64,000 nt of DNA from an uncultured Gemmatimonadales bacterium (GTDB taxonomy: Bacteria; Gemmatimonadota; Gemmatimonadetes; Palauibacterales; Palauibacteraceae), in the NCBI GenBank assembly GCA_963783385.1, contig CAWANJ010000006.1, positions 463,675-527,674 on the forward strand, given 5' to 3'. Positions 40,042 to 50,339 of this stretch are shown here, piece after piece. The notes beneath the pieces are model-generated. The model saw only the letters and a list, made by a program, of their open reading frames with translations. It ran no database searches and was not told where the DNA came from. The position numbers were made by a program, and so were the translations under genes. Numbering within the stretch: position 1 is the first letter of the stretch; every line of letters begins with the position of its first letter.

Positions 40042-40281
40042 CTAGCTGGCCGGGGCCAGGATCTCCTTCACCTGGTCGACCGACAGGACGTGTCCCGCCG
40101 ACCGGACCTGGCCGTCCACCGCCAGGGCGGGCGTCACCATGACGCCCATCCGGGCCAGGTCGACGATTCCCTCGACCTTCTCGATCTCGGCGGCCACGCC
40201 CAGCTCCTCGACCGCCCGCCGGGCGTTGTCGGTGAGGGCCCTGCACTTGGCGCATCCGGTGCCCAGGATCTGGATCTTCAT
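40042..40281 (-). CDS. Small redox-active disulfide protein (thioredoxin family)
   Basis: MKIQILGTGCAKC, GVMVTPALAVDG. Confidence 0.92.
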   Translation of the reverse strand: MKIQILGTGCAKCRALTDNARRAVEELGVAAEIEKVEGIVDLARMGVMVTPALAVDGQVRSAGHVLSVDQVKEILAPAS

Positions 40282-40328
40282 GGTAGGGTTCCTTCTGGAT
40301 TGGAGGACCGTGCGGCTCCGTGGAAGCC

Positions 40329-41690
40329 TCACGCGATCGCCCCGTAGATCATCCCCGCCGTCGTGGCCATGACGACCACCAGCCCGAGGAAGGTGAGGGT
40401 CTTCTTCGTTCCGATCATGCTCCTGATCACCAGGAGGCTGGGCAGGGAGAGCGCCGGCCCGGCCAGGAGGAGGGTAAGCGCCGGTCCCCGGCCCATCCCG
40501 CTCCCGAGCAGGCCCTGGAGGATGGGCACCTCCGTCAGGGTCGCGAAATACATGAAGGCGCCGGCCACGGAGGCGAACAGGTTCGCTCCCAGGGAGTTGC
40601 CTCCGACAGCGCCCGCGATCCACGCGGACGGGATGAGGCCCTCGTGGCCCGGCCTTCCCAGCAGCAGGCCGGCCACCAGGATGCCGACGAGGAGAAGCGG
40701 GAAGATCTGCTTCGCGAATCCCCACGTCGCCGCGAACCACTCTCCGGCCTCTCCTCCGCTCGTGCTGGCGGCCAGCGACAGGCCCACGGTGGCGCCGGCG
40801 AACGGGACGAGGGGCTCGCCGGGGAAGGTCAGGGCGAGGCCGGCCGTGACGGCCGTGACCGCTCCGACCTCGAGCGCGCTCATCCCGATCCAGCGCACCA
40901 GCGCGAAGGCCAGGAGCAGGCCCGAAGCCGCCGTGAGCTTCCACTTGGCTGCGTACACGGCGTGCCACAGCCCCCCGGTCGCGTCGGGCGCGCCCCAGTT
41001 GGCGAACACCAGCACGCCCACCAGCGAGGCGAAGAAGAGCGCGGTCTGCCACAGGGGGCGGTCGGCCGGTCCGTCGGTGGAGACGACCGGCACCCGGTCC
41101 GCCCGCTCCCGCTCATCCCGGCGGAAGAGGACGTGCATCAGGAGCCCGATCACCAGCGCGAACACCACAGCGCCGGCGGCCCGCGCCACGCCGATCTCGG
41201 CCCCCAGTACGTTTGCGGTGAGGACGATGGCCAGCACGTTGATGGCCGGACCCGAGTACAGGAAGGCCGAGGCGGGGCCCAACCCCGCTCCGTTGGCGTA
41301 GATGCCGCCGAACAGCGGCAGCACCGTGCACGAGCACACCGCGAGCAGCGTTCCGGACACGGAGGCGACGCCGTAGGCCACCGGCTTCGGAGCCCGCGGT
41401 CCCAGGTAGGCGAGGACCGATTCCCGGCGCAGGAACACGGAGATGGCCCCGGCGATGAAGAAGGCGGGAACCAGGCACAGCAGCACGTGCGCCCGGGCGT
41501 ACCACCTCGTGAGCGCAAGCGCCTCCGTCACCGCGCCGTCGAACCGCGCCGTCCCCACCGGCAGCAGGTAGAAGGCCAGGAAGAGGGCGGCGATCCAGGC
41601 CAGCGGCTTCCACTCGCGGGCCCACGCCGTCGCCGCGCCTCCGGCGCGGCGCGACGCCCACCACTCCATCGTCCGGCCGGAGGCCATCAC
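40329..41690 (-). CDS. ArsP/DUF318-type permease
   Basis: AVCSCTVLPLF, GPAINVLA, YFATLTEVP, GPALSLP. Confidence 0.9.
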   Translation of the reverse strand: MMASGRTMEWWASRRAGGAATAWAREWKPLAWIAALFLAFYLLPVGTARFDGAVTEALALTRWYARAHVLLCLVPAFFIAGAISVFLRRESVLAYLGPRAPKPVAYGVASVSGTLLAVCSCTVLPLFGGIYANGAGLGPASAFLYSGPAINVLAIVLTANVLGAEIGVARAAGAVVFALVIGLLMHVLFRRDERERADRVPVVSTDGPADRPLWQTALFFASLVGVLVFANWGAPDATGGLWHAVYAAKWKLTAASGLLLAFALVRWIGMSALEVGAVTAVTAGLALTFPGEPLVPFAGATVGLSLAASTSGGEAGEWFAATWGFAKQIFPLLLVGILVAGLLLGRPGHEGLIPSAWIAGAVGGNSLGANLFASVAGAFMYFATLTEVPILQGLLGSGMGRGPALTLLLAGPALSLPSLLVIRSMIGTKKTLTFLGLVVVMATTAGMIYGAIA

Positions 41691-42067
41691 ACGGCCGCCG
41701 GCTGGTCCTCGAGCGCCTCGCTCGCGGCCTTTCCGGCTTCGCGGCCCGCGCGGATCTGGACGAGCACCGGCGTGGCTTCCGGCAGCGGCCGGTCCGCCAG
41801 GAGGGCGCGAAGGACGACGAGGACGGCCGCCAGATCAGGACCGGGGGTCCGGGGCAGCCGGTAGTTGACGATGAGCCCGTCCCGCTCGTCCACCAGCAGG
41901 CCCGCGTCCCGCAGATAGCGGAGGTGGCGGGAGGCCTTGGACTGGGTGATCCCCATGACGCGCTCCACCTCGCACACGCACAGGGGCCCGTGGCGGAAGA
42001 CGAGCCCCAGGATCGTAAGCCGCGTCTCGTCCGAGAGCGCCTTGAAGGTCTGCGCAAGAGAGTCCAC
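41687..42067 (-). CDS. ArsR/SmtB-family regulator
   Basis: FKALSDETRL, LCVCE, SKASRHL. Confidence 0.93.
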   Translation of the reverse strand: MDSLAQTFKALSDETRLTILGLVFRHGPLCVCEVERVMGITQSKASRHLRYLRDAGLLVDERDGLIVNYRLPRTPGPDLAAVLVVLRALLADRPLPEATPVLVQIRAGREAGKAASEALEDQPAAV

Positions 42068-43049: not shown

Positions 43050-43976
43050 TTACACGCCGACGGCCAGGAGCCTGTCCACCTCCGCGAGGTCGTCATCGGT
43101 GAGTCGCCAACCGGCCGCCGCGGCGTTGGCCCGGACTTGCTCCGGCCGCGTGGCTCCGGCGATCACCGAGGCCACCGGCCGATGCGCGAGCAGCCACGAG
43201 AAGGCCAGCTCCAGGAGCGTGTGGCCGCGGTCCTCGGCGAACGCGATGAGCCGCTCGACCCTCGCCATGCTCTCCTCCGAGAGCAGGTCGGCGAAGCGGT
43301 CGCTCCCGGTGATCCGGGCGCCCTCGGGGGCGGCCCGACCCTTTCGGTACTTGCCGGTGAGGAGCCCGCTCTTCAACGGAAAGTAGGGGAGGAGGGCGAG
43401 GTCGAGCTCGGCGCACGCCCCGAGCACTCCCTCCTCGGGCTCCCGGTGCAGCAGGCTGAACTCGTTCTGGACCGAGACGAAACGCGCGGCGCCCGGTCCG
43501 ACGGCCTCCTCGGCCTCGCGGATCTGCGCGACCGAGAAGTTGGAGCAACCGATCTCGCGCACCTTTCCCTCGCGGACCAGGTCGTCCAGCGCCCCGAGCG
43601 TATCGCCAATGGGGACGTCGGGGTCGGGCTCGTGGAGCTGATACAGGTCGATGCGGTCCGTCCCCAGCCGCCGCAGGCTGGCCTCGGCCGCTTTCCTGAC
43701 GTAGGTGGGGGCCGCGCCGCCGCCCTCTCCCGCCACCTCGAACCCGAACTTGGTGGCGATGAACACGTCCTTCCTGCGGTCGCCCAGCGCCCGTCCCAGG
43801 AAAGTCTCGCTCTGCCCGGCGCCGTACACGTCGGCCGTGTCGAAGAAGTCGATACCCGCGTCCAGCGCCGCGCGCACCACCTCGGCCGACGCGTCCGCGT
43901 CGATGCGACGCCCGAAGTTGTTGCAGCCCAGTCCCACGGCCGACACTTTGAGCGAGCCGACCCGCCTTCTCTCCAC
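43050..43976 (-). CDS. Aldo/keto reductase
   Basis: GLGCNNFG, FFDTADVYG, ATKFG, IDLYQLH, IGCSN, YFPL. Confidence 0.95.
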   Translation of the reverse strand: MERRRVGSLKVSAVGLGCNNFGRRIDADASAEVVRAALDAGIDFFDTADVYGAGQSETFLGRALGDRRKDVFIATKFGFEVAGEGGGAAPTYVRKAAEASLRRLGTDRIDLYQLHEPDPDVPIGDTLGALDDLVREGKVREIGCSNFSVAQIREAEEAVGPGAARFVSVQNEFSLLHREPEEGVLGACAELDLALLPYFPLKSGLLTGKYRKGRAAPEGARITGSDRFADLLSEESMARVERLIAFAEDRGHTLLELAFSWLLAHRPVASVIAGATRPEQVRANAAAAGWRLTDDDLAEVDRLLAVGV

Positions 43977-44149
43977 GGTCCTTCCTCCTCGTCCGGATGC
44001 CGTCTCCCGCTGGCCGCAGGCCCGCGGGTCTCCCTCCCTCGCAGCGCAAGTCGCGCACCGCACGTCCGGCCGTTGAGCCAGCGATGAGGCGCGCCCGGAC
44101 CGTTCCGCACCGGTGGAAGCTGAGGTTTCGCCCGAGCAAGGAGGGGACG

Positions 44150-44383
44150 ATGGGACGGTGGGAAGGACTCCGGCGGAAGGGACTGGCGAGCATGCTCGCG
44201 CTGACAATGGGGCTGGGCAGCTTCCTGATCCTGCCCTCGCCGCGGCAGGCGCAGGCCGACCTGTGCGGCGCCAACGACGGCAAGCAGTGCGCGCACGCCT
44301 CCGTGTGCGTGGGCTTCTGGATCTTCAAGTCGTGCACGGAGACCTGGAAGTACTACCAGAGCGAGAAGCAGGTGGTCGCCTGA
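44150..44383 (+). CDS. Small secreted Cys-rich peptide precursor (77 aa)
   Basis: Strong AAGGAGG RBS; Sec signal with AQA cleavage site; mature DLCGANDGKQCAHASVCVGFWIFKSCTETWKYYQSEKQVVA. Confidence 0.8.
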   Translation: MGRWEGLRRKGLASMLALTMGLGSFLILPSPRQAQADLCGANDGKQCAHASVCVGFWIFKSCTETWKYYQSEKQVVA

Positions 44384-44388
44384 GGCGC

Positions 44389-44910
44389 GTGGCAGCGGTG
44401 CGGGGCGGGCCTCGGCCCGCCCCGCCCGGCCTCCCATGGCGTGGCGTGGCGGCCGCGGCCGGAGTGCTGCTGGCGGCCTGCGCGGTGGCGCGGGCCCTTC
44501 CGGCCCTCGCCGAGCGCCCGGTGCGCCTCCCCGTTGCGGCCCGCGGGCCGGACGGCCGTCCCACCCTCCTCTACCTGTTCCAGCGCGCGGACTGCATCCG
44601 GCACGCCGCCCTCCAGCGCCGCTGGTCCGGGCTACGGCGAGCGGGGCGCGCGGTGGTCCTGGGCGTTCCCCTGGACGAGCTCCCCGGGGGAGAGAGGGGG
44701 CCGCGGACGCCGAACCCGGGCTTCCCCGTCCGACCGGACCTTCGGAAGGAGGCCGAACGGCTGATGCTGGAGCTGGGCTACCAGACGACTCCGGTGACGG
44801 TGCTCCTCGACCGGCACGGCCGGCCGCGCCTGCTGCTACCGCCGCCCGCGGACGAAGCGGCCGCGGAGGCGGAAGAGCGCGTGGTGCGCGCCGCGCTGGC
44901 CTCGCCGTGA
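44389..44910 (+). CDS. Exported thioredoxin-fold (TlpA-like) protein with degenerate CxxH motif
   Basis: TLLYLFQRADCIRH, TTPVTVLLDRHG cis-Pro loop; N-terminal hydrophobic anchor; start uncertain. Confidence 0.62.
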   Translation: MAAVRGGPRPAPPGLPWRGVAAAAGVLLAACAVARALPALAERPVRLPVAARGPDGRPTLLYLFQRADCIRHAALQRRWSGLRRAGRAVVLGVPLDELPGGERGPRTPNPGFPVRPDLRKEAERLMLELGYQTTPVTVLLDRHGRPRLLLPPPADEAAAEAEERVVRAALASP

Positions 44911-45969
44911 GCCGCGCGGGCGCCCCGCCGATCGCCGCGGCCGCGCTGGCGGCGCTCGCCCTGGCGTGCGGCGGGGACCGGCCGGGCCACGGGACCGGAG
45001 GGGTCCCTCCGGTCCGGAGCCGCACGACGGTACAGCGGAGCTGGGAGGAGGTCTTCCAGGTAGGCGGCGGCGTGCAGGACACGCTGCTCCAGTCGCCCAC
45101 GGGGCTGGCCGCCGACCGGGACGGGGTCTACGTGGCCGACCCGTCGGCGGGTCGCGTGCTGCGCTTCGACCGCGCCGGGCAGCTGGTGTTCGCCGAGGGT
45201 CGCCCGGGAGGTGGCCCGGGGGAGTTTCGGTCGCTGAGGGACGTGGAGGTCGACGACCGGGGCCTCGCCTGGGTCCTGGATCGGGGCAACGCGCGCATCA
45301 CCATCCTGGGGCCGGACGGCCGCGTGGAAGGGCGCCTTCCCCTCGAAGGCCCGGCGCGCTCGGCCGATCAGCTCGTGCCCCTGCCCGGCGGCAGGGGAGC
45401 CGTGGTGGTCGCCTACGACCGCGAGAGTCCCTTCGCGCGACTGACAATGGACGGCCGGATCGCGGACCGGTTCGGCCCGCCCTGGAAGGACTACTCCTCG
45501 CTCGATCCGCTCGCCTCGCAGCTGGTGACGGCCGCGGGCGGGGGCCGATGGGTGGCGGCCTTCGGCATGGGGGACGGCTTCTTCGTGCGGGATGGAGGGA
45601 CGTGGAGGGGAGGCTCGGCACTCTTACGTCGAATCCCTGCCGTTCCCGGAAGTGGAGACCCGCGGCCGGCTGTCCGAGGACGGCACGGGGCGCGTGGAGG
45701 AGCGCATCGCCGAGGAAAGACCGGTGTTCGGCGCCCTGTCGGCCAGCGTGACCGGGGACCGGCTGGCCGTCCTGTTCGGCGGACGGAGCCCGGGGCGCGG
45801 GCGCTGGCTGGACGTCTACTCGCTGCCCGACGGGCGCTACCGCGGGTCCTACCTGCTCCCGACCTACTTCGAGCAGGTGGCCCTCGGCGGCGGCCTCCTG
45901 TACGGGCTCGCCGACGATCCCGCGCCGCGGCTGGCGGCCTACCGCCTGCCGGCGGATTCCCTACCCTGA
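44907..45969 (+). CDS. Six-bladed beta-propeller (NHL/TolB-like) lipoprotein (frameshift near 45610)
   Basis: Lipobox ALAC; VYVAD, GRPGGGPGEF, WVLDRGN, LDVYSLPDGRYRGS. Confidence 0.8.
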
Positions 45970-46017
45970 GCGGAGCGGACCGCGGGCCCGTCGCGCGGCC
46001 GCCGACCAGGAGGATGC

Positions 46018-46506
46018 ATGCTGGACTCGATCGCCCTGGCGCTGTCCGTGTTCGCCTTCGCCCTGCTGGGCGCCTTCGTGACCGACTGTGCGCGCCGCGA
46101 CCCGGGCCGGCTGCCGGGCGCGCGCCGCGTCCCCCCGCTCATCCGCGGCGGGCCCCTGCGCGTCCTGTGGGCGACGGCCCTGGCCGCCTCCTTCGTGGGC
46201 GGGCTGTATGGGCTCACCCTGCGAGAGCATCGGGACGTGCGCGAGGGGGAAGCGGCCGCCCCGGTGGGCTCGGAGGCGCACCGGATTCTCCGCCTTCCGT
46301 TCTACGTGCGCGAAGAGCGCGTGGCCACCGCCGTGGACGGGTCCTTCCTGCGCTCGAGTCGCTCCACACGGACGCAGCTTCCGTGGGCCTTCCTGGTCGT
46401 GGCCGCCCTGTACGCCTGGGGAGTCACGGCGGCCGACCGGGCGGACCCGGGTCCGGCGTCCGGGCCCCTCAATCCTCCCAGCGCCGGAACAGGAGGGCGG
46501 CGTTGA
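46018..46506 (+). CDS. Hypothetical membrane protein (about 3 TM)
   Basis: AGGAGG RBS; three hydrophobic segments. Confidence 0.6.
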   Translation: MLDSIALALSVFAFALLGAFVTDCARRDPGRLPGARRVPPLIRGGPLRVLWATALAASFVGGLYGLTLREHRDVREGEAAAPVGSEAHRILRLPFYVREERVATAVDGSFLRSSRSTRTQLPWAFLVVAALYAWGVTAADRADPGPASGPLNPPSAGTGGRR

Positions 46507-47731
46507 TGCCGCCGAATCCGAACGAGTTCGACAGCGCGTACTCGGCCTGGCGGGACTCGCCCGACCCCGTGATCAGTTGGAGTCCCTCGCACGAGTCGTC
46601 GGTCGTCTCGAGGTTGAGCGTGGGCGGGTACCAGTCGCGCTCCAGGGCCAGGGAGACGATGGCGGCCTCGATGGCCCCGGAGGCGCCCAGGGCGTGACCG
46701 TAGTATCCCTTGGTGCCGCTCGTCGGGATGCGAGAGGCGCGCTCGCCGTGCACCGAGCGGATGGCCAGCGCCTCGGTCGGGTCGTTGAGCAGGGTCGCGG
46801 AGCCGTGCGCGTTGATGTAGTCGACGACGGACGGGCTCACGCCGGCGTCCTCGAGGGCCAGCCGCATGGCCCGGGCCGCCTGGCGGCCGTCGGGCCGCGG
46901 CCGGGTCATGTGGAAGGCGTCGTTGGTCGTCCCGAATCCGCACAGCTCGGCGTGGATCCGGGCGCCCCGGTCCAGGGCATGCTCCATCTCCTCGAGCAGC
47001 AGGAGGGAGGCACCCTCGCCCATCACGAAGCCATCACGGTCCCGGTCGAAGGGCCGCGAGGCCGCCGACGGGTCGTCGTTCCGGGTCGACATGGCCCGCA
47101 GGATGGCGAACGCCCCGAACGACAGTGGCGCGAGGGGGGCCTCGGCTCCGCCGGCCAGGGCCACGTCCGCCCGGTCGTCGCGAATGAGCCGGAAGCCGCT
47201 CCCCACGCCGATGGCGCCGGACGCGCAGCTCATGGCGTTGGTGGCGTTGGGACCGGTGAAGCCGAGCTCGATCGCCACGTTGCAGCTCGCGGCCCCGCCG
47301 AACACGGTGAGGGCGAGCATCGGGTTCACGCCGCGCGTGCCCGCCCGCAGGTAGGCCTCGTGCTGGGCCTCGGCGAACTCCACGCCCCCCAGCGCGCTCC
47401 CCATCTGCACGGCCATCCGATCGGAGTCCTCCGTCTCGGGGTCGAGGCCCGCGTCTTCCACCGCCATGCGTGCGACGGCCACGGCCAGGGCGCTGTAACG
47501 ATCCAGCCGACGCAGCCGCCGGCGGTCGATCCACGTCTCCGGATCGAAGCCCGGGACCTCGGCCGCGATGCGCGTGCGGAACGGCTCCGGGTCGAAGCGG
47601 GTGATCGGACCCACCGCCGAGCGGCGGCGGTGGAGGCCTTCCCACAACCCCTCGGCGCCCTGGCCGATCGGCGTGACGCAGCCGATCCCGGTGACGACGA
47701 CCCGCCGGCCGTCCCGCTCAGGCCGGAGCAT
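46469..47731 (-). CDS. fabF: Beta-ketoacyl-ACP synthase II-like ketosynthase
   Basis: RVVVTGIG, MSCASG, SRPFD..RDGFVMGEG, YINAHG, GHALGA, NSFGFGG; may be a secondary-metabolism paralog. Confidence 0.85.
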   Translation of the reverse strand: MLRPERDGRRVVVTGIGCVTPIGQGAEGLWEGLHRRRSAVGPITRFDPEPFRTRIAAEVPGFDPETWIDRRRLRRLDRYSALAVAVARMAVEDAGLDPETEDSDRMAVQMGSALGGVEFAEAQHEAYLRAGTRGVNPMLALTVFGGAASCNVAIELGFTGPNATNAMSCASGAIGVGSGFRLIRDDRADVALAGGAEAPLAPLSFGAFAILRAMSTRNDDPSAASRPFDRDRDGFVMGEGASLLLLEEMEHALDRGARIHAELCGFGTTNDAFHMTRPRPDGRQAARAMRLALEDAGVSPSVVDYINAHGSATLLNDPTEALAIRSVHGERASRIPTSGTKGYYGHALGASGAIEAAIVSLALERDWYPPTLNLETTDDSCEGLQLITGSGESRQAEYALSNSFGFGGINAALLFRRWED

Positions 47732-48248
47732 GGGGCCCTCCCGGCGATCCCGTCGCGGACTTGCCGTCCCCGGGCTCCCGGCCCGAAGCAGCGAGCTCCC
47801 GCGCGGCCGCCGCGATGCCGGCCAGCGTCCGGTCGGCCACGACGTGGATGAAGTGCGGCCCGATGACCCGACGCGCCGCGAACCCCCCGACCACCGGCCA
47901 GGTGGGGCCCGTCCAGGCGTGGACGATCTCGATGCGCGTGCCCCACGGGGAGGGCTCCAGTCGCCACTCGACCTCCATTCCCTTCGTGATCCCCTCCACG
48001 TGTCGGTAGCGGATGCGGCCGGCGGACAGGTCGGAGGTCATCTCGGACACCCACCACACGGGGTAGGGGAGGGGACCGAAGCGGCGCATCGCGGCCATCT
48101 CGACGCGTCCCCGCCCGCGGCCGTCACGGCGGCGGAAGACGACGCGGCGGTAATGGGGCAGGAGCTCCGGCCAGGCCTCCACGTCGACGGCCAGCTCGAG
48201 GCAGACGCCGGGGGGCGCGGCGGCCACGACCTCGTTATGCGTGAGCAT
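47718..48248 (-). CDS. SRPBCC/polyketide cyclase-aromatase family protein
   Basis: DVEAWPELLPHYR, YRHVEGITKGMEVEWRL. Confidence 0.8.
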   Translation of the reverse strand: MLTHNEVVAAAPPGVCLELAVDVEAWPELLPHYRRVVFRRRDGRGRGRVEMAAMRRFGPLPYPVWWVSEMTSDLSAGRIRYRHVEGITKGMEVEWRLEPSPWGTRIEIVHAWTGPTWPVVGGFAARRVIGPHFIHVVADRTLAGIAAAARELAASGREPGDGKSATGSPGGPHAPA

Positions 48249-49602
48249 CGCGCCTTCCCAGCCCGCGCGGCCGTGGCTCGGGGCGGCCGCGCACGGGGTC
48301 GCCGGCCTGTCCGCGGTCACCGTGGAACAGGGCGCGCGCGAGCCGCCGCGGCTCCAGCATCTCCCCGGCCGGCAGGATGTCGCCGGTCACATCGACCAGC
48401 AGGTCCGCCAGGCCACGGCGACGAGCCAGGAGCCACGCCGCCGCGTCCATGAGGGTGGGCCGGCCGACCACGAAGTCGATGAGCCGTTGGACCCGGCGCG
48501 ACGGAGCCAGGAGACCCTCCACCTCCCGCGCGTACCGTCGATCCAGGGCCCGCTCGTCCGCTTCCGATCCCGCCCCGAGCGCGGCGCGCGCGTGGGCGGC
48601 GGCCAGCCGGCCGGTCGCCAGGGCCCGGTAGATGCCCTGTCCGGTGAACGGATCGAAGTACCCGGCGGCATCGCCCACCAGGAAGACGCCCGGGCCCGCG
48701 ACACGGCGCGGGACGACCTCGAACGGTCCCGTCACCTCGATGGCGCCCACTCTCCGCGCACCGGCGAGCCGCTTCGCCACGCCGTAGGCCCGCAGGCGGC
48801 TCTCCAGGAACGCCTCGCGGCCGGCGGCGACCGCAGGCGCCTTCGAGGCGGGCACCACGACCGTGGCGTTCCAGCGGCCGCCGCCCAGCGGCGCCAGCCC
48901 CGAGCAGCCCTCGGCCGAGACCCGCATCTCCCCGAGCGTCGTCCCCGAGGCGAGGGCCGGACCGTCCGCGTAGCGGGCCACCAGGGCGAGCTTCGGCCTT
49001 CGGCCGCGCCGCACCCCGCCCATCCGGCGGGCCACGGTCGAGCGGAGTCCGTCGGCGCCCGCGACCAGGCGCGCGGGAATGGTCGCCTCCCGGCCGTCGG
49101 ATCGGCGCACCAGGACCCCGGCCACGCGGCCCTCCCGCCAGTCGAGGTCCACGACCCGGATGCCCTCGCGGACGTCGGCGCCGGCGCGCGCCGCGGCCCG
49201 GAGGAGCGCGGCGTCGAGCTGTCGGCGGGGCAGGGCGAGGCCGCGCAGCGGGGCGCCGCTGGCGTCGCGCCCGAAACGCCCCTCGAACCGGGCGCCGCCG
49301 GGGGCCCGGAGCCTCCATCCGTCCAGGTGGGCCGCGGTCTCTTGCGTGAGCTCTTCGAGGACGCCGAGCTCCTCAAGCAGGGGGGTCGCCCCCGGACTGA
49401 GGCAGTCCCCGCACGGCTTGGAGCGGGGGAAGGACCGCTCGTCGAGGAGGACGACGCGCCGTCCCTCCCCCGCGAGCCGGGCCGCGAGGGAGCTGCCCGC
49501 CGGGCCGGCCCCGACGACCACCACGTCGGCCGGCCCGGCCGGCCCGCAACGCCCGCTCACGCCGTCGGGCGCGCGGTCACGCGCCGCTCCGGGTCCCGTC
49601 AT
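48235..49602 (-). CDS. FAD-dependent oxidoreductase (geranylgeranyl reductase/halogenase-like)
   Basis: VVGAGPAG, FPRSKPCG, GADG, GDAAGYFDPFTGQGI. Confidence 0.9.
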   Translation of the reverse strand: MTGPGAARDRAPDGVSGRCGPAGPADVVVVGAGPAGSSLAARLAGEGRRVVLLDERSFPRSKPCGDCLSPGATPLLEELGVLEELTQETAAHLDGWRLRAPGGARFEGRFGRDASGAPLRGLALPRRQLDAALLRAAARAGADVREGIRVVDLDWREGRVAGVLVRRSDGREATIPARLVAGADGLRSTVARRMGGVRRGRRPKLALVARYADGPALASGTTLGEMRVSAEGCSGLAPLGGGRWNATVVVPASKAPAVAAGREAFLESRLRAYGVAKRLAGARRVGAIEVTGPFEVVPRRVAGPGVFLVGDAAGYFDPFTGQGIYRALATGRLAAAHARAALGAGSEADERALDRRYAREVEGLLAPSRRVQRLIDFVVGRPTLMDAAAWLLARRRGLADLLVDVTGDILPAGEMLEPRRLARALFHGDRGQAGDPVRGRPEPRPRGLGRRDAHA

Positions 49603-50339
49603 GCCGCGAGCCCCGCGGCGAGGAGCCGCACCGGGCCGGCGCGCACGACCCGGCCCGGGACCCCGGAGGAGGCGAGCAGGGCCTCGACCTCGGCCGGCGT
49701 GAACGCGCGCCGCACCGAGACCGGACCGTCCACGCGCGGAAGGGGCTGCGATCGCCACAGCGTCGATGCCAGCATCCGCACGAGGCCCAGTGCGAGGCGA
49801 GAGCGGCGCAGGTCGGCGACCAGCCAGCGGCCGTTGGACACGCGGGCCAGCTCCGAGAGGAGCCGCGCCGCCTCGTCGCGCTCCAGGTGGTGGAGGGTCA
49901 GGGAGCTGAGGGCCAGGTCGAAGGCGCCATCCGAGAAGGGGAGCTCGGCGGCGGTGAGTCGCACGAAGTCGAACGCGCCGGGACGCGCGACGTCCCGCAG
50001 CCCGTCGCGTGCGATCCGGAGCGTCATGGGATGCAGGTCCCCCAGGACGCAGCGGGGGCGCCAGCCGGAGCCGTGCAGGCGCGCCTCGAGGAGGCGCGGA
50101 ATGTCCCCGGCGCCGGAGCCCACATCCAGGATGCGGAGCGGGCCGGGAGCGCGCCCCTCGAGGAGCCGCCGCACCCCCCACCACACCAGGTGGTGGCCCC
50201 CGAACAGTCGGTTGGAGACGGCGAGTGCCTCCAGGGCACGCCGGAGCCGGCCGGCGTCGCAGGCCGGGTCGTCCATGCGCTCCGGGAGACACCCGGGTGA
50301 GACCCGCTCCAGCGGCGACAGCATCGGTCCGGGTCTCAC
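49599..50339 (-). CDS. SAM-dependent methyltransferase
   Basis: ERMDDP, ILDVGSGAG, SLTLHH, DLRR, SVRRAFT. Confidence 0.88.
   Translation of the reverse strand: MRPGPMLSPLERVSPGCLPERMDDPACDAGRLRRALEALAVSNRLFGGHHLVWWGVRRLLEGRAPGPLRILDVGSGAGDIPRLLEARLHGSGWRPRCVLGDLHPMTLRIARDGLRDVARPGAFDFVRLTAAELPFSDGAFDLALSSLTLHHLERDEAARLLSELARVSNGRWLVADLRRSRLALGLVRMLASTLWRSQPLPRVDGPVSVRRAFTPAEVEALLASSGVPGRVVRAGPVRLLAAGLAA

Follow-up and report, generated by a model that had tools for sequence, protein, structure and literature searches.

The closest described systems to the locus reported here are SOQ1 of the plant thylakoid lumen and NHLRC2 of animals, in which, according to the published studies, a thioredoxin-like domain and a propeller of NHL repeats form one unit with the redox motif at their interface (PMC6107167; 10.1101/2021.03.16.435614). 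A further study describes the thioredoxin-like domain of SOQ1 as passing electrons to a small cysteine-bearing C-terminal domain having methionine sulfoxide reductase activity (10.1101/2024.11.01.621559). The NHLRC2 study reports no conserved neighbouring genes in the 7 bacterial genomes examined there (PMC6107167). In the present work a set of four genes was analysed in a window of 64,000 nucleotides (the whole stretch of DNA under study) from an uncultured Gemmatimonadales bacterium (contig CAWANJ010000006.1). The genes encode an exported four-cysteine mini-protein (pep), a thioredoxin-like protein (trx), an NHL-repeat beta-propeller lipoprotein (prop) and a three-segment membrane protein (mem). 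The four-gene set is a real, conserved and undescribed envelope module of Gemmatimonadota; a literature search, with coverage of subscription journals mostly lacking, found no paper describing it. The propeller is predicted to grip the mini-protein, and the reading that both form an envelope complex served by its own monothiol disulfide isomerase is held by us at about an even chance.

SOQ1 and NHLRC2 resemble this gene set in that, outside the compartment equivalent to the cytoplasm, a TlpA-type thioredoxin-like domain is described as cooperating with an NHL propeller of six blades. The two domains are described there as fused in one chain, whereas here they are encoded by separate genes that overlap by GTGA. 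The motif reported for SOQ1 and NHLRC2 is CC(I/V)NC (PMC6107167), in contrast to the single [DE]-C (DCIRH) of the present protein. The third part of SOQ1 is described as a beta-stranded nDsbD-like domain, while here an unrelated mini-protein of 41 amino acids with four cysteines takes the third place.

The four open reading frames are co-oriented and tightly packed. They are flanked by an aldo/keto reductase gene, which diverges from them, and a ketoacyl-synthase gene, which converges on them. The features of the locus are given below.

43050-43991, minus strand: aldo/keto reductase gene, divergent from the four-gene set
44137..44143, plus strand: Shine-Dalgarno-like AAGGAGG, 6 nt before the mini-protein ATG at 44150 (direct read)
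44150..44383, plus strand: mini-protein gene (pep), 77 amino acids, exported, four-cysteine (translation, orthologs)
44389..44910, plus strand: thioredoxin-like gene (trx), 173 amino acids, membrane-anchored (translation, alignments, hhalign)
44907..45969, plus strand: NHL-repeat beta-propeller lipoprotein gene (prop), 353 amino acids once an extra base is removed (Pfam NHL, PDB profile match)
45615..45615, plus strand: extra T shifting the propeller frame (alignment to relatives and metagenome contigs)
46018..46506, plus strand: three-segment membrane protein gene (mem), 162 amino acids (translation, family alignment A6)
46469-47731, minus strand: ketoacyl-synthase gene, convergent with the four-gene set

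The spacing between pep and trx is 5 bp, with the GTG of trx at 44389, which would be the true start as the residues following it are conserved within the genus. The stop codon of trx overlaps the start of prop as GTGA (44907-44910), and a gap of 48 bp separates prop from the mem ATG at 46018. The AAGGAGG also precedes the orthologous mini-protein ATG in three same-genus genomes. The mem gene carries AGGAGG 7 nt upstream and shares its final 38 bp with the 3' end of the ketoacyl-synthase gene on the opposite strand. The gene positions, gaps, overlap and strong ribosome-binding site given in the initial annotation were all re-read in the sequence. The guanine plus cytosine (GC) content at third codon positions (GC3) was 0.88-0.92 in all four frames, which is of coding type, the window GC being 0.72. 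A scan of 43900-46700 for promoters and terminators returned 0 sites each, about the same as for shuffled sequences, and is uninformative for this phylum.

The propeller gene is not one open frame in the window. Frame 0 from 44907 must move to +1 near 45615, with the stop at 45969; on the family profile the first half covers positions 6-245 and the second 243-360. T45615 is missing from three same-genus genomes (G001, G002 and G003), where the propeller lies in one frame, and from the contigs that span this position in all 4 metagenome runs compared, each of a different study; one of these four contigs, compared over 1,646 bases, shows just 5 further differences from the window. The frame break is thus private to this assembly, and T45615 is probably an assembly error, which is the simplest explanation, or else a recent private mutation. 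The propeller gene is intact in the population.

The recurrence of the gene set across genomes was analysed by tblastn with the window proteins, and the order pep-trx-prop-mem was repeated in G001, G002, G003, G005, G021 and G032; one contig ends early and one genome holds pep-trx-mem without propeller. Partner profiles were built from seven genomes and 40 peptide-selected loci were scanned, of which 32 were independent of profile building; narrower alignments were used for the collection scans, the broad ones (A4 and A9) being too variable. The propeller subfamily was found beside the peptide in 24 of the 32 independent Gemmatimonadota loci. The remaining 8 comprise 2 loci cut by the contig end right after trx, 1 pep-trx-mem locus, 4 with weak NHL matches about 1 kb off and 1 lone peptide. 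In a distant peptide clade the set including the propeller was present in 3 of 4 metagenome loci. Viewed from the other side, the propeller subfamily occurs in 47 of 401 sampled genomes of the phylum at an expectation value (E) up to 1e-30, and a family peptide lies within 1.5 kb in 15 of 29 propeller-selected loci. These three counts bear out the expectation of the initial annotation that cysteine-rich small reading frames would accompany propeller and thioredoxin-like homologs. The gene order also varies, with pep-trx-mem-prop, pep-pep-trx-prop, trx-prop-pep-pep and pep-trx-prop-pep observed, and tandem peptide copies are present in L107, L109, L110, L111 and L118. The flanks of the 8 annotated loci contained no extra recurrent partner, and the neighbours differ between genera. 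Such variable order with differing flanks indicates that the link is functional and not merely inherited synteny. According to the run labels, the gene set occurs in sediment, salt-marsh and soil metagenomes.

The binding of the mini-protein to the propeller was analysed with a complex model of the mature peptide and the intact propeller of a near-identical relative (G003, locus L022). The interface score ipSAE (interaction prediction score from aligned errors) was 0.87, 0.88 and 0.88 in three runs, compared with 0.01 for the best of 3 controls. This gives model support to the partner role that had been suggested for the propeller in the initial annotation. Among solved complexes 116 of 157 attain the same ipSAE mark, and among mismatched pairs 2 of 215 do so; these counts hold only roughly here since our own alignments were used. 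At least 95% of contacts were shared between the runs. The predicted local distance difference test (pLDDT) value was 80 for the partner and 91 for the propeller chain, while the peptide modelled alone in the ESM Atlas had a mean pLDDT of 0.50. The predicted contacts are spread over propeller residues 65 to 338, that is over one face, with a strand-like pairing of propeller residues 263-269 with peptide residues 46-53.

The propeller carries a lipobox LALAC at residues 17-21, and Pfam NHL (PF01436) matched two stretches of it, scoring 29.1 bits where the cut-off is 20 (E 8.7e-7). The family profile searched against PDB sequences matched the NHL domain of Thin with an E of 5e-34, followed by TRIM71, TRIM2/3 and Brat, and the PknD sensor (1rwi) with an E of 6.6e-6; the amidating lyase 3fvz was matched weakly (E 0.047). 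No His or Cys is invariant in the propeller family, which makes a metal or redox site like that of the amidating lyase unlikely. The NHL/TolB-like propeller lipoprotein of the initial annotation was therefore upheld by its lipobox and NHL repeats, but as a single open frame it does not stand here because of the inserted T45615. The initial annotation had also pointed to the DUF5128/NVEALA pairs of Bacteroidota, which reportedly share the theme of a six-bladed propeller lipoprotein beside small exported proteins. DUF5128 (PF17170) reached 20.8 bits with the propeller, below its cut-off of 22.9, and the NVEALA model matched none of 92 family peptides.

Three propellers of the subfamily that lack a family peptide (L139, L140 and L145) were observed to adjoin pairs of mutually similar proteins of about 110 amino acids with multiple hydrophobic segments. 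In the genome G000, contig C2 carries at about 75986-78534 (L126, L170) and on one strand a second NHL lipoprotein, of 395 amino acids, then two small membrane proteins and a 276-amino-acid lipoprotein with a canonical Redoxin domain, with no four-cysteine peptide seen; this group may be a distant relative of the same theme.

The mini-protein precursor has a hydrophobic Sec-type signal at residues 1-36 (44150-44257) ending in A-Q-A, and the mature product of 41 amino acids (44258-44380) bears C39, C47, C53 and C62 in the pattern C-x7-C-x5-C-x8-C, including CVGFWIFKSC. The translation thus confirmed the precursor in the form first proposed, with its length, signal, mature part and cysteine spacing. 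Orthologs of 76-100% identity are present in 3 of 3 other genomes of the genus and relatives of 35-38% identity in five further genomes of the family. With an eight-sequence profile the mini-protein family was found in 20 of 145 genomes of the order, all in one family. A search of 1.84 billion representative proteins yielded 109 representative clusters at E up to 0.001, of which 98 show the four-cysteine pattern; the 7-5-8 spacing is kept in 70 of these 98, in accordance with the conservation anticipated in the initial annotation. Alignment of 92 sequences revealed that the four cysteines are invariant and Y68 nearly so, with the consensus CG-x3-G-x2-C-x3-E-x-C-x8-CTT-x-Y-x-YY. The ratio of nonsynonymous to synonymous substitution rates for the mature part was 0.10 and 0.18 in two same-genus comparisons, and the gene is under purifying selection.

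Neither Pfam nor NCBIfam has a model that matches the mini-protein family. The profile compared with PDB sequences gave as its best match an unrelated chain (E 0.055), with no likeness to any solved chain, and in the ESM Atlas the best feature score was 0.78 with all structure rows under the bar, yielding no lead. According to record titles, the carriers are uncultured Gemmatimonadota save one short contig of 1887 bases (L086) from a bin labelled Nitrospira; this contig holds a cassette copy pep-trx-prop, which may reflect a binning error or a transfer. Some peptides (L029 and L030, of one genus, and P0026-P0028 and P0098) were seen to carry a Gly-rich linker and a C-terminal extension bearing two further cysteines (C-x-W-G-R-D-Y-x-G-W-x-P-R-x-C), and further members have tails that are either long and acidic or Gly-rich with a final F.

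A small cysteine-rich protein encoded beside a propeller, a thioredoxin-like protein and a membrane protein calls to mind the methylamine dehydrogenase cluster, in which the small cysteine-rich subunit MauA sits on the propeller MauB and the thioredoxin-like MauD and the membrane protein MauE are helpers. The cast of four is the same; the systems are not homologous, the propeller here being of NHL repeats whereas the heavy subunit of methylamine dehydrogenase is seven-bladed. The MauD and MauE models matched none of the gene-set proteins, and no amine-oxidation genes were found near the cassette in the window genome or in the 8 annotated loci. No Trp is conserved in the mini-protein family, so a cofactor of the tryptophan tryptophylquinone type is not expected. 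A metal-binding or cofactor-bearing small subunit was set aside, as no Trp, His or extra Cys is conserved in the family.

The variability of the peptide was also considered in terms of a Sec-dependent bacteriocin locus, in which a released antimicrobial peptide would be folded by a thioredoxin-like accessory while propeller and membrane protein would provide peptide-binding self-immunity. The patchy spread (6 of 32 genera of the order, 26 of 401 genomes of the phylum sample), the tandem peptide genes in several loci and the strongly variable loops between fixed cysteines would suit such a locus, and the predicted binding to the propeller would suit an immunity protein too. There is also a precedent in pediocin PA-1 of class IIa, in which, as the literature describes it, a four-cysteine exported peptide is likewise encoded beside a dedicated putative thiol-disulfide oxidoreductase, PedC, that improves its potency. 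The pediocin host is Gram-positive and the peptide has a double-glycine leader and an ATP-binding cassette exporter and no propeller, whereas a Sec signal and a propeller are found here. Pediocin is cationic, with a cytosolic immunity protein, and the site in PedC is CxxC. The gene set showed no sequence relation to pediocin or PedC.

The mature peptides of the present family are mostly neutral or anionic, with a median net charge of -2 and a charge of +2 or more in only 6 of 92, which together with the Sec leader sets them apart from class II bacteriocins. A 735-amino-acid Peptidase_C39-like protein, a domain kind found on bacteriocin exporters, is encoded about 0.7 kb downstream of the cassette in L088 (9194-11398), but such a neighbour was present in 1 of 8 loci only. 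No outer-membrane exporter is conserved in the flanks of the 8 annotated loci, and a Sec product of a diderm without such an exporter remains periplasmic. The in-frame fusions described below tether the propeller, and possibly a second peptide, to the membrane protein, so that a resident complex suits them better than a bacteriocin. The bacteriocin locus appears unlikely in the light of these observations, though it keeps some weight. The label 'RiPP-like' (ribosomally synthesised and post-translationally modified peptide) of the initial annotation does not fit. A Sec signal serves as the leader, and neither the cassette nor the flanks of the 8 loci show a conserved modifying enzyme; the only enzyme-like partner in the cassette is the thioredoxin-like protein.

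A single hydrophobic segment lies at the N-terminus of the thioredoxin-like protein, whose one conserved cysteine is found at D68-C69 (DCIRH) and which also has a conserved T134-P135. Comparison by hhalign with seven Redoxin-domain proteins of the same genome gave 95.9% probability and an E of 5.2e-9 over 89 columns; C69 falls on the first cysteine of WCxxC, and the position of the second is a gap. Weak PDB profile matches were obtained to 3lor (E 0.002) and to 3gl3, a DsbE (E 0.08), both covering the invariant T-P stretch, and an Atlas feature search led to TlpA/AhpC-TSA clusters with scores of 0.94-0.95, which serves as a lead only. These results agree with the exported thioredoxin-fold protein having one active-site cysteine that was first noted, the single motif being confirmed and the fold being assigned by hhalign. 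All 32 distinct relatives compared across the class keep [DE]-C, and none of them has CxxC. No thioredoxin-clan model of Pfam or NCBIfam matched any of 22 members at E up to 1. The family is small, with 19 matches among 5.8 billion proteins in a word-limited search, and the genome of the window has a single copy of it and a single mini-protein. One relative carries the Joint Genome Institute name peroxiredoxin, which was rejected; the peroxiredoxin motif carries a Thr three residues before the Cys, and here the residue at that position is not Thr.

As only the nucleophilic first cysteine of CxxC is kept, the protein would be an isomerase or covalent chaperone and not an oxidase or reductase, and no recycling of DsbD type would be needed. 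In enzymes of the protein disulfide isomerase type a single first cysteine suffices for isomerase activity. The disulfide role proposed for this protein from the outset is consistent with the fold assignment and the conserved single cysteine.

The presence of a thioredoxin-like protein together with a propeller and a small cysteine-bearing partner, the same three kinds of part as in SOQ1, also raises a split SOQ1/NHLRC2-like redox module. Here trx and prop would form the enzyme, on the pattern of the working unit described for NHLRC2 and SOQ1, and the mini-protein would be a small redox-active partner replacing the electron-receiving C-terminal domain reported for SOQ1, relaying electrons to envelope proteins or repairing them. 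The thioredoxin-like protein, however, has one cysteine and no dithiol, and so cannot run a classical dithiol-disulfide relay. Nor is an electron source such as DsbD or CcdA conserved near the 8 annotated loci, the chains of NHLRC2 and SOQ1 are absent from the 46 PDB sequences matched by the propeller at E up to 1, and the mini-protein resembles no solved chain. A redox module of this kind is considered quite improbable.

The membrane protein of 162 amino acids has three hydrophobic segments, an Arg-rich loop after the first and a second loop of about 50 residues with L-R-x-P-F and Q-x-P-W, in which R92, P94, F95, Q120, P122 and W123 are invariant in the family alignment. Among 11 family members no Pfam match was obtained apart from two single weak hits, and the alignment contained no conserved residue suggesting catalysis. 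The peptide, the thioredoxin-like protein and the membrane protein thus match no Pfam or NCBIfam family, in accordance with the initial view of a conserved module missed by standard annotation.

Wherever mem precedes prop (8 of 8 loci), both lie in one frame with no stop between them. The junction keeps a hydrophobic, lipobox-like segment that would return the propeller to the outer side past the third membrane segment. Four database proteins (P0060, P0064, P0066 and P0084) consist of mem, a signal-like segment and a four-cysteine domain of a second subtype; a contig-end copy of this second subtype in one genome may follow the cassette likewise. The extra hydrophobic segment between the fused parts in both kinds of fusion is explained by an outward topology, which requires one. 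The conserved mem loop, the propeller and the peptides would then all face the periplasm, and the Arg-rich loop and extra segments are consistent with this.

A membrane protein beside an exported propeller may also be read as an envelope signalling module, in which the mini-protein as ligand would bind the propeller, perhaps gated by its disulfides, and either the three-segment protein or an anti-sigma factor close by would signal this binding across the membrane. NHL propellers act as extracytoplasmic sensor domains, and the PknD sensor is among the PDB matches given above. That sensor is also a bacterial NHL propeller outside the cytoplasm, and we know of no ligand for it. The PknD propeller is fused to its kinase through one membrane helix, whereas the propeller here is a lipoprotein or is fused to a three-segment protein and has a candidate peptide ligand. 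Two of the 8 annotated loci (L088 and L104) have genes for extracytoplasmic function sigma factors no more than a few kb away, but unrelated genes stand between these and the cassette, and none was found in the flanks of the other 6. The membrane protein has short loops, no Pfam family and no recognisable cytoplasmic output domain, and no regulator is conserved next to the cassette in the genome of the window. The chance of such a signalling module is accordingly put very low. A related possibility is a peptide-receptor pair, in which the monothiol protein would set or read the disulfide state of the mini-protein and so govern the occupancy of the propeller, the membrane partner relaying an envelope redox or stress signal; this is given a rather slim chance.

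The envelope complex with its own disulfide isomerase would be assembled in the following manner. The 77-residue precursor would be exported through Sec and cleaved after AQA, and the 41-residue product would become a two-disulfide mini-protein. The correct pairing, one of three possible, would be found with the help of the membrane-anchored thioredoxin-like protein, acting as a dedicated disulfide isomerase or covalent chaperone without DsbD-type recycling. The folded mini-protein would dock over one face of the propeller, as ligand or small subunit, and the membrane protein would scaffold the complex at the membrane through its conserved outward loop. An envelope-resident complex, be it structural, sensing or protective, is more likely than a released antibiotic.

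Several observations weigh against the envelope complex. The score of the predicted complex is the confidence of the model itself and not a measurement. The predicted interface is not more conserved than the rest of the propeller, with a mean identity of 0.53 versus 0.59 and 5 of 37 invariant positions versus 63 of 281 elsewhere; an unconserved interface may fit a co-evolving pair and adds no support. The propeller is missing from the pep-trx-mem sets of three loci of one genus (L093, L099 and L101), and is hence dispensable for some peptides, and a solitary peptide copy is present in L108. No family peptide was found with this query in 14 of 29 propeller-selected loci; a look by eye for other cysteine-rich small reading frames at these 14 loci found none convincing, the GC3-based gene finder failing on loci of lower GC. 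The thioredoxin-like protein appears to align with the Redoxin/TlpA group, an assignment of fold that comes from profile comparison.

Two further gene groups were observed in the window. A minus-strand trio at 40045-42067 consists of an ArsR-family regulator (41690-42067), an ArsP_1-type predicted permease (40332-41690) and a 79-amino-acid Thioredoxin_3 protein with CAKC (40045-40281). A minus-strand row of genes at 46469-50324, convergent with the cassette, encodes the FabF-like ketoacyl synthase, a polyketide cyclase/SRPBCC protein, a monooxygenase-like protein binding flavin adenine dinucleotide and a methyltransferase, and may be a small lipid or polyketide pathway.

For three of the four proteins no curated database names the family, yet the set recurs across the whole phylum. 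For thinking about NHLRC2 and SOQ1 it offers a split bacterial counterpart. With its single cysteine, the thioredoxin-like protein would represent a natural and self-sufficient disulfide isomerase dedicated to one client, and thereby a clean model for the choice of disulfide pairing outside the cytoplasm. Should the peptide-receptor reading be true, the set would represent a novel type of envelope signalling, in which an extracytoplasmic NHL sensor of bacteria has its ligand, the mini-protein, named for the first time. If the binding model holds, a bacterial NHL propeller would, so far as the searches could tell, have been assigned a defined protein partner for the first time, and, as that partner is a 41-residue two-disulfide mini-protein which can be synthesised, the function of this widespread class of propellers would become directly testable.

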